This document shows, one piece after another, positions 47,913 through 53,060 of a DNA stretch of 64,000 bases (its first letter is position 1; the number at the start of each line of letters is the position of its first letter). Below the pieces are notes generated by a model. It saw only the letters and a program-made list of their open reading frames with translations. It was not told the origin of the DNA and searched no databases. Made by a program: the position numbers and the translations under genes. The DNA is from an uncultured Nitrospiraceae bacterium (GTDB taxonomy: Bacteria; Nitrospirota; Thermodesulfovibrionia; Thermodesulfovibrionales; Dissulfurispiraceae), in contig CAVSHF010000003.1 in assembly GCA_963727805.1 (NCBI GenBank), forward strand, positions 1,408,001 through 1,472,000, in the 5' to 3' direction.

Positions 47913-48024
47913 TGAAGCCTCCTTTATTGCACACCCAAAGATTAGTCGGCAAATTTTTGAACTCTATAGTAACAATCTTGCTGCAAAAATCGCAAGGGCG
48001 CAATGCCTCGCACACCCCGGAGAT

Positions 48025-48843
48025 TTAGAACAGATATTCCCTAAATAGATGGAGGCCTCTCTTGTGCTCGTCGGACAACTCATAGTCAAGCATGTTCCAG
48101 TAATCAATGATTGTCTCTTCCCTCATAAAAGCCTTCATGGGCGAATGACTCACGATCTCACGCAGGTTTTTCAGTGATTCTTCTTTTGCCTTCAACAGAT
48201 CGTCGGTAAATTTCATAAAGAGATCGTGCCTCACATCGTCGGGATTATACAGCTCTTTCCGTACAATCCAAAGAGCAAAGACAAAGGGGAGTCCTGTCTT
48301 TTCATGCCATATTTCGCCAAGATCATAAACAAACGCAGAAGCGCCGATGTCCTTAAGTGTCGCATGTTGAATTTTGATCCTTGAATTGTACTTCAGGGCT
48401 TCATCCCCTATGAGTAGAAACGCTTCCGCATCTATCGATTCGGGATTTGTTGAAACCGTCAAGTGGCAAGAAACGCCATAAAATCTTTTAAGAATGATAT
48501 GGAGAAGGGCAATGGAGGTCTCTGACTGAGATGTGACGTATATGGTGCATCCAGCAAGAGTCCCGATTGGTCTCTTGCTGAAAAGAAAAATGCTTCCCAC
48601 AGGGCCCTTCGAACTGACCGAGATGCCGTCTACATACCCGTAGAGTAAAGGGTTGTGCAGATATTCGATCGATGATGAAGGACTGAGGTCAATTGAGCCC
48701 GCCCTGAGCATCCCGTTCAGGCTTGAGGGAACGCCTTCGACAAAATCATAGCATGAACAGTCGAACTCTTTTTCGAGAGTATAGAAAATCGGGAAAAGAT
48801 TGGCAAAAGGTATTCTTCCGACCTTCAGTCTCCGGTCCGCCAT
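48025..48843 (-). CDS. mqnA: Chorismate dehydratase (futalosine menaquinone pathway)
   Basis: GRIPFAN, PSSLN, LLIGDEAL, DLGEIW..TGLPFVFALW. Confidence 0.88.
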   Translation of the reverse strand: MADRRLKVGRIPFANLFPIFYTLEKEFDCSCYDFVEGVPSSLNGMLRAGSIDLSPSSSIEYLHNPLLYGYVDGISVSSKGPVGSIFLFSKRPIGTLAGCTIYVTSQSETSIALLHIILKRFYGVSCHLTVSTNPESIDAEAFLLIGDEALKYNSRIKIQHATLKDIGASAFVYDLGEIWHEKTGLPFVFALWIVRKELYNPDDVRHDLFMKFTDDLLKAKEESLKNLREIVSHSPMKAFMREETIIDYWNMLDYELSDEHKRGLHLFREYLF

Positions 48844-50288
48844 TATCCCTTTATCACTCCCATCGGCCTCAGCCGAGCAATCTTTCGGGCAATCCCAGCA
48901 TTGTGGACCACGTCCACTACGTTTGATATATTCTTATAGGCTTCAGGCATTTCTTCGGCAAGGATCTCTCTTCCAGCAGACCTGACAATTATGCCCTTAT
49001 CTTCCAGTTCCTTCCTTATCGTCCGCCCCTTTGCCTGCCTTATGGCCTGGTGTCGCGACATGATCCTACCCGCTCCATGACAGGCTGAACCGTAGGTCTC
49101 ATACATGGCCTTCTCCGTTCCAATGAGCACAAAAGACGCCCTCCCCATGTCACCGGGGATGAGAACCGGCTGACCGAGTTGCCGATAAATACCAGGGAGT
49201 TCGGGATGGCCCGGCGGGAAGGCCCTGGTGGCCCCTTTGCGATGGACGATCACTTTTTTCTTTTTACCGCCGATCACGTGCTCCTCGACTTTCGCGATAT
49301 TATGCGCCACGTCGTAAACCAGATTCATCCCAAGATTGGCCGGCGATGACTTAAAGAGACCCATAAATGTCTCGCGCGTCCAGTGCATGAGACACTGCCT
49401 GTTGGCCCAAGCATAATTCGCCGCAGCCCGCATAGCACCCAGATAAGCTTGCGCCTCGCGGCTTCTGAATGGCGCGCACGCCAGCTCCCTGTCAGGTAGT
49501 TCGATTTTATATTTCTTAACCGCCTCCTCCATGACTTCGAGGAAATCAGTGCATACCTGATGACCGAAACCGCGCGATCCCGTGTGGATCATCACTGTCA
49601 CATCGTTTTTGAAAAGTCCAAGCGCATTTGCGGTATTTTCATCATATATCTCGTCGATATACTGCACTTCGAGAAAATGGTTGCCCGAACCTAGCGTACC
49701 CTGTTGCGCTCGTCCCCGTTCATAGGCCTTAGCGCTTATTTGATCGGGATCGGCGCCGTCGATGCATCCCCCCGATTCGATCCTGTCGAGGTCAGTCATA
49801 GAACCATATCCTTCCTCGACAGCCCATCGTGCCCCTTTGAGGAGAAGCTTCCTCTCAGAATCGGGGCCGAGCCGTATCCGGCCTTTCGAACCGACTCCAG
49901 CCGGTATCTCGTTATAGAGGGCCTCGACGAGGTCTCTGATCCTCGGAGCTACCTGTTCCCGTGTGAGGTTGCTCCTGAGGAGTCTGACCCCTCAATTGAT
50001 ATCGTATCCAACACCCCCAGGCGATAATATCCCCTCGTCAAGATCAAAGGCCGCCACCCCTCCGATGGGAAAACCATAGCCGGTATGGATGTCCGGCATG
50101 GCGAGTGACGAGCCAAGAATCCCCGGGAGTGTGGCGACATTTGCTACCTGGTCGATGCATCCCGGTTCAAGCCCCTTTTCGAGAATGGCGTCCGCAAAGA
50201 TGATCCCGTTTGTTCTCATGCCTGATTTGTAGTCCTTTGGGACCTCGATCCTATTGTCGTCTATCCTTTTCAGCTTGTCCAGAGACAT
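48843..50288 (-). CDS. rtcB: RtcB RNA ligase, 481 aa when read through an in-frame TGA at codon 99 (catalytic Cys position; candidate selenocysteine)
   Basis: The two track ORFs are one frame: [15 protein letters not shown]...[13 protein letters not shown]...GSGNHF...HTGSRG...HN...HRKGAT...CHGAGR. Confidence 0.9.
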
Positions 50289-50315
50289 ACGGACCTCCTC
50301 ATTTACCTCGAATTC

Positions 50316-50729
50316 TCAGATATCAAAGATAACCTCTACTTCACACCGACCGCCGCTCTTATCGACCCTGATATTGTGATATGTCGCCGCCTTTAAAAGC
50401 AACCTCTGCTCATGTTTCCGCGGGTCGAACTCTTCACCATAAACCTTTGCCCTGATAAATGCTGCCGAGAATTCTGTGACCTCGATCCGCTTGCCTATGA
50501 AGTTGTACGTATCAAAATGGAAGATTAGTTCGTTGAGATACTTCACCAGAAGACTCTCGAGCGAATCTGATGAAATGTCTATTTCGAGCGTTTTTCTTTC
50601 TCCTATCTGCTCTAGATCGGTGATCAGACTGTACATCCCGATGCCGACGTTGCCCCAGGCCTCTGCACAATCACTTCCATACGCCTTAATGCCTGCGTCA
50701 CCGAATATATCGATAACTTCATAATTCAT
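50316..50729 (-). CDS. Archease (RtcB activator)
   Basis: YEVID..GDAGI.AYG, LNELIF, KAATYH, terminal FDI; directly upstream of rtcB. Confidence 0.92.
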   Translation of the reverse strand: MNYEVIDIFGDAGIKAYGSDCAEAWGNVGIGMYSLITDLEQIGERKTLEIDISSDSLESLLVKYLNELIFHFDTYNFIGKRIEVTEFSAAFIRAKVYGEEFDPRKHEQRLLLKAATYHNIRVDKSGGRCEVEVIFDI

Positions 50730-51753
50730 ACTTACATGATATCATAAGCCTCGGTTGACCACGGGCTATCGAAACCTGCTGATAAAGATTTCAACAAACA
50801 TACCTCTCATTTAAAAATACAGTTGTGAGAGTTGGTGCCAACACTGGAATTTCAACATTCGTCCTGCTGTCGCACAGGTTATGGGAGTTCGAACGCGGCG
50901 AGACCGCTGAGTAGTGCATTAAGGACAATGGCAATATTGACACTGATACAAAGAGCCTCTGCCCATCCCTAATCAAATGCAGCGCATTAAATCAACACCT
51001 TGCAGAATTGTCTAAGGTATTTGCTGTGGGTAAAATGCATTCCTTTGAAGTGAAAACCATCGCTGCTGTTCACTTGTTCGCCATCGAAGCATAGGTTATT
51101 AACCTAGCCGTTGTGCGCACACTGGCATATCGCCAGAGCAAAGGTTCGCGTTCCCTCTATGGTAACCAAGTCCATCTAGGATGCACTGATACGCACATAC
51201 TGCCATGATCGTCTGCTCCAGTCGTATCTGTGCACCAAGGAGTGAAACTGAACTACGGCAATGAAAAAGCAGTGCTAGGTGTCAATTAAGCTCAGGTGCG
51301 AACAACAAAAGCAGTCACAGTAGCCCTGGCACCCATGGTGGCCAATTATGCGTTCCTATTTATTACCGTAGCTTATTCAAGAAATGGAACATCGCTCTGC
51401 CCTTACTAAGGTGGCCGGCGGCGACCCCTCAGACGAGAGTTTCTACTGCCGAGTGCTCGGAGTTTGTGCTCTCAGTTGATAATCATATAGAGGACACCTC
51501 CCGAGCATACCATTTGGCGAACTGCTGAGCAAGGAGGCGATTGATTCACTCACGAGACAGATAAAGGCAAAATAGGTGGTAGTGGAAAAGAAGATAGATC
51601 TGAGGAACCCCTATGATCTTCTTCTAAGTAACCAGGAGTGGGGGAAGGTAATCGGCGTGCCTTTACCCAATTTCGCCGATTGCAACACGCAGATGAAAAG
51701 ACGGTTATATTCCACAAAGATTGCAATTTGATTTCTTAATGCGTTTAGATCGC

Positions 51754-51788
51754 AAAAAAAAGAGGCAAGGTCTAATGACCTTGCCTCC
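51754..51788 (-). terminator. Rho-independent terminator
   Basis: GAGGCAAGGTC-ATTA-GACCTTGCCTC followed by U8. Confidence 0.85.
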
Positions 51789-51809
51789 GTTCGACTTAAA
51801 TTGATCAGC

Positions 51810-52967
51810 TTATTTTATAATTGGCTTGTCACCTGCCATTCCATAAGTCATCACAGAATCAATCCCCGGGTCCCAAGCACCATTTCCATTGGTATCGACG
51901 TACCAAGTACCGTTTCTGAAGACGCCAATCTTGGTCTTTCCATCACCATTCCAGTCAGCGACAACCGGAATATCGCCGGCAATCCCAAAAGGTATGCAAG
52001 CATCTTTAGTCGGATCCGCAGGCGCTCCGCAGCCAACCCACTGGCCCGTAGTAGAGTACGTCCCAGGGTAATCAAGATACCACATCCCATTTCTGAAGAC
52101 TCCGATCTTGGACGTGCCATTCCCATTCCAGTCACCCACAACAGGGATATCACCAGCCGTACCGAAAGCTATGCAGGCATCTTTAGTCGGATCATTAGGC
52201 GCTCCGCAGCCAACCCATGTGCCTGTGCCAGGGTAGTCAAGATACCACATTCCGTTTCTAAAGACTCCAATCTTGGACTTGCCATTTCCGTTCCAGTCAC
52301 CCACAACGGGTATATCGCCAGCAACACCCCAAGAGATGCAGGCGTCTTTAGTCGGATCATTAGCTGCTCCGCAGCCAACCCATGTGCCTGTGTCAGGGTT
52401 GTCAAGATACCATGTCCCGTTTCTGAAGACACCGATCTTTTTCGTGCCAGTACCGGTCCAATCACCAATAACCGGTACGTCTCCGGCTAGGCCGAAGGAT
52501 ATAGTAGTGTCAACGCCAGGAACCCACACGCCGGTTTGACTCATATCGATGTACCACATACCGTTTCTAAAAACACCTGCATATGATTGTCCCACGATTA
52601 CAGAACCCATTTGTGTTTTTGAGACCTCATTCGAAGTGACACTCTCCAGTCCTGCGGAATTATATGCGGTTGCAACAAAATAATAAGTGCCGGACGCCAA
52701 GTTGTTAAAAGTATAGGTTGTTACCTTGCCGAGAGTAATTGAATTAGTGTAATTACCAGAAGAACTGCCATAATAAACATTATATCCAGCAAGGTCTGTC
52801 AGCGGCGTCCCATCGGTGTTAGTGGTCGGAGCAGTCCAGTTAAGAGTTATTGCTGAAAAGGCATTTTCAACAGCTATCGGTAATATAAGCATTAATACGG
52901 TGAATAAAGTCAGCGTAGCAATCCAAACACGATGAGCGGGCCGGTAAAGCCTCTCGTTCTTTAACAT
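51810..52967 (-). CDS. Secreted protein: signal peptide, FN3 domain, about five FG-GAP/VCBS-like repeats
   Basis: Hydrophobic N-terminus ending AFSA; LNWTAP...AGYNVYYG...YYFVATAYN; GVFRNGxWYLD...GDIPVVGDWNG repeats. Confidence 0.85.
   Translation of the reverse strand: MLKNERLYRPAHRVWIATLTLFTVLMLILPIAVENAFSAITLNWTAPTTNTDGTPLTDLAGYNVYYGSSSGNYTNSITLGKVTTYTFNNLASGTYYFVATAYNSAGLESVTSNEVSKTQMGSVIVGQSYAGVFRNGMWYIDMSQTGVWVPGVDTTISFGLAGDVPVIGDWTGTGTKKIGVFRNGTWYLDNPDTGTWVGCGAANDPTKDACISWGVAGDIPVVGDWNGNGKSKIGVFRNGMWYLDYPGTGTWVGCGAPNDPTKDACIAFGTAGDIPVVGDWNGNGTSKIGVFRNGMWYLDYPGTYSTTGQWVGCGAPADPTKDACIPFGIAGDIPVVADWNGDGKTKIGVFRNGTWYVDTNGNGAWDPGIDSVMTYGMAGDKPIIK
51870..52578 (-). repeat. Intragenic tandem repeats (about 165 bp / 55 aa unit)
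   Basis: Near-identical copies of tcttt agtcggatc, gctccgcagccaaccca and ccgtttct blocks. Confidence 0.85.
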
Positions 52968-52976
52968 AAGCACCCC

Positions 52977-53060
52977 CCAGCAGCCCGTCCGCCCTATCCC
53001 CGAAGGATTCAGGCCCGTAGCGTTGCTTCCCACTCGTTCGAGTGGTTTGCCCCTTACGGC
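52977..53060 (-). ncRNA. Cyclic di-GMP-I (GEMM-I) riboswitch, variant
   Basis: GGGCAAACCACTC-GAAC-GAGTGGGAAGCAACGCTACGGGCCTGAA...TAGGGCGGACGGGCTGC just 5' of the RBS. Confidence 0.8.

Follow-up and report, generated by a model that had tools for sequence, protein, structure and literature searches.

The rtcB gene and its in-frame TGA

We analyzed a 64,000-nucleotide (nt) stretch of DNA (hereafter, the window) from an uncultured Nitrospiraceae bacterium (GenBank assembly GCA_963727805.1, contig CAVSHF010000003.1, positions 1,408,001 to 1,472,000 of the forward strand; coordinates below count from the first letter of the window). The minus strand of the window carries a gene for an archaeal/eukaryote-like RtcB RNA ligase (rtcB; 48843-50288) that is full-length by read-through. 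The frame running from 50288 to 48843 translates into 481 residues followed by the terminal stop codon, and its sole internal stop is a TGA at 49992-49994 (minus strand). This TGA, a predicted selenocysteine (Sec) codon, is codon 99 and corresponds to Cys98 of the Pyrococcus horikoshii enzyme. The first-pass annotation, made from the sequence alone, had joined open reading frames (ORFs) of 98 and 318 amino acids (aa), with 64 open codons between them, into one frame split solely by this TGA, and both the ORFs and the translation agree with that assignment. The database entries for rtcB are the 98-aa and 318-aa fragments, and in the 90% protein cluster that contains the N-terminal fragment, all 13 members are exactly 98 aa long.

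The read-through protein matches Pfam family PF01139 along its entire length (positions 1-426 of 426; 598.6 bits, E 1e-179) and aligns over residues 5-481 with P. horikoshii RtcB (1uc2; E 3.5e-191), with the TGA falling on Cys98. According to the parts of PMC9745838 that deal with this enzyme, its two Mn ions are bridged by Cys98, replacement of Cys98 by Ala kills all steps, the further metal ligands are Asp95, His203, His234 and His329, and the nucleophile is His404. All these residues have counterparts in the protein encoded here, namely, the metal ligands D96, U99 (the TGA codon), H204, H235 and H329 and the nucleophile H404; accordingly, a class test for RtcB found five catalytic residues present and, in place of the bridging Cys98, a TGA codon. 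This is the single rtcB copy detected by a search of the genome, the completeness of which is rated at 100%. Judging by how its nearest homologues are named, the organism probably belongs to Nitrospirota, class Thermodesulfovibrionia.

An assembly error is excluded by independent contigs that show no change at the TGA. A DNA contig from run X1, which may be the source sample, covers 49830-50256 with 0 differences, and a contig from run X2, which belongs to another study, covers the TGA and differs at 14 positions, all in ways that leave the TGA unaltered. Coverage of the codon in runs X3 and X4 was too poor to be read. Contigs from the RNA runs X15, X16 and X18 also cover the codon and were left aside, since contigs cannot show transcription.

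Conservation of the TGA and selection on RtcB

In a set of 41 genomes, comprising this one and 40 relatives, TGA occupies the Cys codon in 14, the present genome included, with TGC or TGT in others; selA and tRNA-Sec are present in all 14, and selA in 37 of the 41 genomes of this order-level set. A pattern scan of species-representative genomes yielded at least 120 TGA-containing rtcB loci in several phyla; the taxa among the matches listed (80 titles) are Nitrospirae, Deltaproteobacteria/Thermodesulfobacteriota, Acidobacteriota, Binatia, Eisenbacteria, Gemmatimonadales and Polyangiaceae. Of the first 50 of these loci, 48 come from genomes in which selA was detected. In a phylum sample of 201 genomes, 13 of the matches listed had a TGA, all of them within this class, as against 0 of the 100 listed from other classes. 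The best 120 full-length database homologues contain Cys at this position in 119 cases, one being unparsed, and the letter U occurs in 0 of 270 fetched database proteins, from a collection that may not keep such records.

Downstream of the TGA, the frame runs on for 378-383 codons in 71 of the 74 loci with the frame end in view and stops early in the other three. A few TGA-type genes break or stop early downstream, perhaps through a frameshift, a gap or decay (L214 in genome G040, L236 in genome G029, L090, L117 and L119). Apart from the bridging residue, 15 catalytic or substrate-binding residues are invariant across 79 TGA-encoded and 34 Cys-containing proteins (113/113), which bears out the earlier observation that the other RtcB catalytic motifs are intact. 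The region past the TGA is under purifying selection: the ratio of nonsynonymous to synonymous substitution rates (dN/dS) is 0.018 between this gene and its nearest TGA relative, a rough value given that the proportion of synonymous differences (pS) in this closest pair, 0.75, is near saturation, and 0.092 in a second TGA pair, compared with 0.038-0.051 for Cys comparisons; two more TGA pairs were saturated at synonymous sites. Near the active site, no substitution is specific to the TGA-encoded proteins; where these differ most from the Cys proteins, the changes are either conservative or fall in the codons of the RNA hairpins described below. Within a single order, the bridging position is occupied by predicted Sec, by Cys or by Cys preceded by an intein: in the RtcB of one relative (L220, G033:C1:359000-362700), an intein is inserted directly before the same catalytic residue, which is encoded by TGT.

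Selenocysteine machinery and other probable selenoprotein genes of the genome

The genome carries selA, selB, one tRNA-Sec with a UCA anticodon, and two selD genes, each with its own TGA. The other TGA-bearing genes include three molybdopterin oxidoreductases, two mvhD genes and one hydrogenase large subunit; in nearly all of these Sec genes, the G-led loop of a hairpin lies 17-23 nt past the TGA. TGA is the true stop in 549 of the 1599 long ORFs of the genome and, because it remains a common stop codon, the genetic code is not reassigned. An anticodon-arm scan of the genome identified one UCA tRNA, which is the tRNA-Sec, and a selB search identified one selB; neither a second selB nor a UCA-anticodon tRNA-Cys was found by these searches. 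The first-pass annotation had left open whether the product contains Sec or a recoded Cys. The former is supported by the retention of the TGA in relatives, by purifying selection past it and by a complete set of Sec genes, and the latter is weak, given the lone UCA tRNA and the single selB. Thus, the earlier interpretation of rtcB as a candidate selenoprotein gene is supported and, judging from the sequences, rtcB very probably codes for selenocysteine at the metal-bridging Cys codon, so that the product would be a full-length Sec-containing RNA ligase.

The genome also contains two tRNA-Sec-like genes of the selC* type, both with a GCA anticodon and U73 (C3:994192-994317, minus strand, L002; C3:960046-960162, minus strand, L004). 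Both were missed by ARAGORN, and about 120 nt of upstream sequence is common to the two. One precedes, by about 100 nt, an operon for a Cys-type [NiFe] hydrogenase, the paralogue of which has Sec, and the other about 120 nt upstream of a transporter gene, presumably a YeeE/YedE-like one. These selC*-type genes possibly function as a selenium- or sulfur-sensing leader or as a Cys back-up.

A genome-wide coding-potential scan for read-through TGAs returned 74 candidates, mostly noise. More candidate Sec codons with downstream hairpins are located at C3:1552120(+), C3:1945855(+), C5:354238(+), C5:1156991(-), C5:16890(-) and C5:476694(-); the respective products would include UxxC thioredoxin-like, UGC, OsmC-like and unnamed proteins. 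The large subunit of an uptake-type (Group 1-like) [NiFe] hydrogenase (C3:1352725-1354278, minus strand; L186/L282) and its counterparts L283-L301 have TGA in the N-terminal motif. In the 20 loci fetched, this motif is UxxU in 11, CxxU in 6 and CxxC in 2, with one not parsed; the C-terminal motif is all Cys, and a G-loop hairpin is found 23 nt downstream. UxxU has been reported as new and for Group 4 only, and the N-terminal CxxU as rare in Group 1 (PMC13582414).

Two kinds of predicted SECIS elements in TGA-containing rtcB genes

Bacterial Sec insertion sequence (SECIS) elements have the loop consensus N1-G-[G|U]-N-N2, located 16-37 nt from the UGA, as given in section 5 of PMC13188914. For comparison, we assembled 133 distinct TGA-containing rtcB sequences (90 of the ordinary type and 43 of the Thermodesulfovibrionia type) and 43 Cys genes, after dropping duplicates, an off-target motif match (L047:1229) and loci too short for 90 nt. 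The group of 43 was defined by the absence of a proximal hairpin or the presence of the hairpin denoted hairpin 1 below, and one sequence (L106) was assigned to the ordinary group by eye. The ordinary-type genes come mostly from Deltaproteobacteria, Acidobacteriota and others. In 89 of 90 cases, they carry an ordinary SECIS element in which a G-led loop, 20-21 nt past the UGA, sits on a short stem, typically GCUC-AGGUCU-GAGC. This proximal G-loop hairpin is found in 0 of the 43 Cys genes and in only one of the 43 Thermodesulfovibrionia-type TGA genes, the group to which the present gene belongs.

The latter genes harbor a different arrangement of two consecutive hairpins. Hairpin 1, a predicted spacer (49941-49980, minus strand; 11-50 nt past the UGA), is 40 nt long, with a 15-base-pair (bp) stem, one bulge and a 9-nt loop, and its folding z-score is -3.4. 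In 8 of its 15 pairs, both sides have changed, and 85.7% of the alignment cells are paired in the 43 TGA genes compared with 59.2% in the 43 Cys genes. The loop sequence is unconserved and, in one gene, lacks any G. A first reading of hairpin 1 as the SECIS element, based on a 66-nt window, was rejected: the loop is unconserved, and that window ended before hairpin 2. Hairpin 2, the predicted SelB-binding SECIS element (49916-49937, minus strand), has the GUC loop at 49928-49926, closed by a C-G pair, 63 nt past the UGA; across the group, the hairpin reads GACCUC-GUN-GRGGUC. The first-pass annotation had named no SECIS element, and hairpin 2 is the one candidate. Its C-GUC-G loop satisfies the published loop consensus, which hairpin 1 fails, and is identical to the loop of selD2 from the same genome.

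The strict distal motif is present in 41 of the 43 Thermodesulfovibrionia-type TGA genes, compared with 3 of the 43 Cys genes (all TGT) and 2 of the 90 ordinary-type genes; the two TGA genes outside it have a 5-nt loop with G in the second position. The motif was recovered in 13 of the 14 TGA genes unused for motif discovery and in 1 of 559 real TGA stops taken as background. RNAalifold recovers both hairpins unprompted. For the 26-pair structure comprising both hairpins, 87.0% of the cells are paired in the 43 TGA genes, with two-sided changes in 10 pairs and none of 500 shuffles scoring as high, as against 59.1% paired and 72 of 500 shuffles as high in the 43 Cys control genes. Synonymous conservation along the whole gene peaks at codons 109-123 in 29 Thermodesulfovibrionia-type TGA genes (z 4.8; 5.3 after subtraction of 34 Cys genes), and this peak is seen only in the TGA genes. 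The residues at these codons are dictated by the RNA; for example, D119 is present in 29 of 29 TGA genes compared with 12 of 34 Cys genes.

The two-hairpin signal goes with the UGA and decays on reversion to Cys. Indeed, three TGT (Cys) genes (L034, L215 and L217) retain the distal hairpin, two of them along with hairpin 1, and are likely recent Sec-to-Cys reversions. In the tree, the ordinary-SECIS clade and the two-hairpin clade are set apart by Cys-type Nitrospirota, which suggests that Sec-rtcB arose twice, on a collection scan that was aimed at TGA and hardly sampled the Cys relatives of the ordinary-SECIS clade. The sequence comparisons make it likely that hairpin 2 is the SelB site, and the two-hairpin signal is probably a new SECIS architecture. 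Rfam had no match within 48000-52000, and no selenoprotein-type RtcB model in NCBIfam matched the protein.

A second candidate remote SECIS element in mvhD

One mvhD gene of the same genome (C3:2180590(+), L180) and its six close orthologues (L240-L245) also contain a G-less first hairpin that is followed, 49 nt past the UGA, by a hairpin with an A-GUU loop. The five codons of this second hairpin are identical in 7 of 7 genes, whereas elsewhere only 12 of 78 comparable codons are identical. Four Cys homologues that share the RRKFA peptide lack the distal hairpin, as do two TGA homologues with an ordinary SECIS element. From these sequences, which are seven close kin, mvhD appears to use the same spacer-hairpin design as rtcB.

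Neighboring genes

A Shine-Dalgarno-like GAGGAGG (50294-50300, minus strand) lies 5 nt upstream of the rtcB ATG; the promoter and terminator scans gave scores near shuffle levels. Directly upstream, as noted in the first-pass annotation, is the gene for archease, the RtcB activator (50316-50729, minus strand; PF01951, E 6.6e-35); the flanks retrieved contain it for 9 of 10 TGA relatives and 17 of 20 Cys relatives. Downstream of rtcB is a menaquinone-biosynthesis gene of the PF02621 family (48025-48843, minus strand), which we take to be MqnA-like and the ATG of which overlaps the rtcB stop codon (TAATG). It adjoins rtcB in 9 of 10 TGA relatives, in 18 of 20 relatives with Cys and in none of the 59 ordinary-SECIS loci; because it is equally common beside Cys-type rtcB, this adjacency is not Sec-specific. 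Given the TAATG overlap (48843-48845), failure of read-through at low selenium may be polar on the PF02621 gene and on yajC-secD-secF. Further upstream, the window encodes a secreted-looking protein of 407 aa (51810-53033, minus strand) that combines a fibronectin III domain with several nearly identical copies of a GDxPVxGDWxGxG repeat.

Proposed mechanism

We propose the following scenario for the expression of this rtcB. With the UGA in the A site, the ribosome would cover the next 8-11 nt of the mRNA, and hairpin 1 (nt 11-50) would stay folded at the mRNA entrance, looping out 40 nt. In this model, the C-GUN-G loop of hairpin 2 would end up at an effective path of about 23 nt from the UGA, in the same range as in the other Sec genes of the genome (17-23 nt). 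In this particular gene, hairpin 2 would be unmasked once the ribosome covers the nucleotides after the UGA, and SelB and tRNA-Sec would then decode the UGA via hairpin 2. If the enzyme works as P. horikoshii RtcB does, its selenolate would bridge the two metals, probably Mn, and His404 would be guanylylated with the help of archease; Sec-RtcB would likewise repair RNA by joining 2',3'-cyclic or 3'-phosphate termini to 5'-OH termini.

We regard as somewhat more likely than not the composite view that RtcB constitutes a widespread but so far unlisted family of selenoproteins, a nucleic acid ligase with a selenium-bridged two-metal center that, in Thermodesulfovibrionia, would employ a new class of SECIS element, remote, brought into reach by a 40-nt spacer hairpin and, in this gene, unmasked at the UGA; with mvhD apparently arranged alike, 16-37 nt would not be the real limit. 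We hold this full combination with less assurance than the Sec assignment itself.

Several observations weigh against these readings. The distal loop, at 63 nt, fails the 16-37 nt distance rule unless hairpin 1 is looped out. Only 2 of the 11 pairs of hairpin 2 have changed on both sides, so that this element rests on conservation more than on covariation; in this rtcB, it includes an A-C mismatch. Both hairpins lie within coding sequence and were partly derived from the same sequences, which are kin. Furthermore, the GGGGUC immediately after the UGA (49986-49991, minus strand) is predicted to mask hairpin 2 by pairing with 49934-49929 in the free mRNA, where the probability of hairpin 2 is 0.03; it rises to 0.87-0.89 when the first 8-11 nt are held unpaired. 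Across the group, hairpin 2 folds in 32 of 43 genes unblocked and in 40 of 43 blocked, so masking is not general. With regard to Sec itself, selA also exceeds the cut-off in 23 of the 27 genomes that lack the TGA, so that co-occurrence barely discriminates in this order, and the closest-pair dN/dS is rough, as noted above. Sec and Cys have interchanged 12-13 times among 72 related genes (in a tree with low basal support), which indicates that Sec is dispensable and argues against a large benefit of selenium. Finally, an engineered P. horikoshii RtcB with Sec at position 98 (U98) was reported, in passages of PMC4150793, to cleave itself near the Sec, and therefore Sec is not automatically tolerated in RtcB.

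Alternative explanations

The alternative that survives best, although we regard it as unlikely, accepts Sec insertion, and thus falls within the Sec assignment, but has SelB bind hairpin 1 or an unseen element, with hairpin 2 slowing the ribosome or protecting the mRNA. Hairpin 1 begins 11 nt past the UGA, like the upper stem of Escherichia coli fdhF (in the portion of PMC8659212 consulted), has a 5' bulge and a loop 27 nt from the UGA, within the 16-37 nt range, and shows stronger covariation than hairpin 2. However, its loop has no conserved base and in one gene no G, whereas a G among the first two loop bases is the hallmark of bacterial SECIS elements; synonymous constraint peaks over the 3' arm of hairpin 1 together with hairpin 2; and in the seven mvhD orthologues, the first hairpin is G-less and the distal A-GUU hairpin is invariant.

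Far less probable is that the UGA specifies Cys, inserted by a tRNA-Cys of the selC* type or through hairpin-stimulated near-cognate read-through, so that the enzyme is an ordinary one, its level set by recoding. The two selC*-type genes with GCA and U73 make such a route conceivable, which counts against the Sec assignment, and so does the self-cleavage of the engineered U98 protein in the passages cited above; moreover, selC* tRNA-Cys is known in Nitrospirae, and its UCA form suppresses opal codons with Cys, according to the relevant part of PMC5389517. Yet that suppression, as described there, was shown for the UCA form from genomes with a second selB, neither of which was found here: both selC* genes of this genome are GCA, with one UCA tRNA and one selB. 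Furthermore, the distal loop fits the SelB-type consensus, and 89 of 90 TGA genes from other lineages have a normal SECIS element.

Slightly less credible still is a product that is mainly a selenium sensor or is processed, either through Sec-promoted cleavage near residue 99 or through termination at low selenium that tunes rtcB and the coupled downstream gene. The self-cleavage of U98 in the same passages of PMC4150793 could be read this way, the TAATG overlap with the PF02621 gene fits translational coupling, and residue 99 coincides with the +1 position of the intein found in the RtcB of one relative, where the codon is TGT. These points are countered by the invariance of all catalytic residues in what is the sole rtcB copy, and by the PF02621 gene being equally adjacent in Cys relatives and adjacent in none of the 59 ordinary-SECIS loci. 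A nonsense mutation (pseudogene) or a sequencing error, to which the 98-aa and 318-aa database pieces and the 3 of 74 TGA loci that end early might point, is excluded for practical purposes because the same codon recurs across phyla, under purifying selection, with dedicated hairpins and in independent contigs.

Comparison with known systems

The Sec assignment for rtcB and its putative remote SECIS element can be set against several known systems. The Cys-type RtcB-archease pairs (P. horikoshii PH1602, PDB 1uc2/4dwq; Thermus thermophilus TTHA1785, 2epg; human RTCB) resemble the present one in the full-length match, the metal ligands, His404 and the adjacent archease gene, and differ in that the Cys98 codon is TGA here. 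The engineered P. horikoshii U98 protein (Haruna et al. 2014, PMC4150793), as far as its RtcB passages go, has Sec at the same residue, but is artificial, UAG-based, SECIS-free and reportedly self-cleaving; natural Sec-RtcB is unmentioned in those passages. Hairpin 2 shares with bacterial SECIS elements of the E. coli fdhF type (as drawn in Fig. 2 of PMC13188914) a small, base-pair-closed loop with G followed by U, located in the coding region 3' of the UGA; the difference is the distance of 63 nt, rather than 16-37 nt, behind a conserved 40-nt hairpin. In the selC* tRNA-Cys/SelB* system of opal-to-Cys recoding (Mukai et al., in the part of PMC5389517 consulted), the likeness consists in the two selC*-like genes, but their anticodons here are GCA, and a second selB was not found in the genome.

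The first-pass annotation had placed this use of Sec outside the classic selenoprotein families. That holds for the enzymatic context, a non-redox nucleic acid ligase being unusual, but not for metal binding, which is itself classic: in formate dehydrogenase and the NiFeSe hydrogenases, Sec likewise replaces a metal-binding Cys and sometimes bridges. Those enzymes are redox ones, whereas RtcB is a nucleotidyl-transfer ligase with an Mn2 center.

RtcB is absent from the 119-family selenoprotein Table 1 of a 2026 review, the text of which contains 'RtcB' and 'ligase' 0 times, and, by word search, from the main texts of BSepDB, deep-Sep and SelCysML as well as from four deep-Sep supplements. Deng et al. 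2026 is said to hold unvalidated new selenoprotein candidates. A literature search over titles, abstracts and passages, which left outside it most subscription journals, bioRxiv supplements, BSepDB Table S2, Deng et al. 2026, and Haft and Tolstoy 2025, returned for Sec-RtcB the engineered protein only and, within the same limits, no remote bacterial SECIS element of this kind. We are highly confident, on the sequence comparisons, that Sec-RtcB is a real selenoprotein form of a known enzyme, and probably an unpublished one.

Implications

The bridging Cys of RtcB is treated as invariant. Sec resists irreversible oxidation, and the benefit of selenium could be that it protects an oxidation-prone ligand from irreversible damage, a guess that we regard as somewhat less than even. 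The relevant passages of PMC13247085 and PMC9745838 describe the bridging Cys as an oxidation-sensitive weak point that oxidizes and loses metals and that is guarded in animals by PYROXD1 and thioredoxin. A natural Sec-RtcB with Cys sisters more than 80% identical in the same genus would allow sulfur and selenium to be compared cleanly in a two-metal enzyme that performs no redox chemistry, a comparison relevant to the question why Sec is retained. Because gene callers split these genes into fragments, surveys of RtcB and of selenoproteomes miscount Sec-rtcB.

The remote SECIS element, if true, would provide a route to Sec where the protein sequence beside the UGA cannot spell a SECIS element. 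It would call for wider selenoprotein searches and could ease the coding constraint on recombinant selenoproteins in bacteria. SECIS-based searches would, in that case, have overlooked a layer of selenoproteins.

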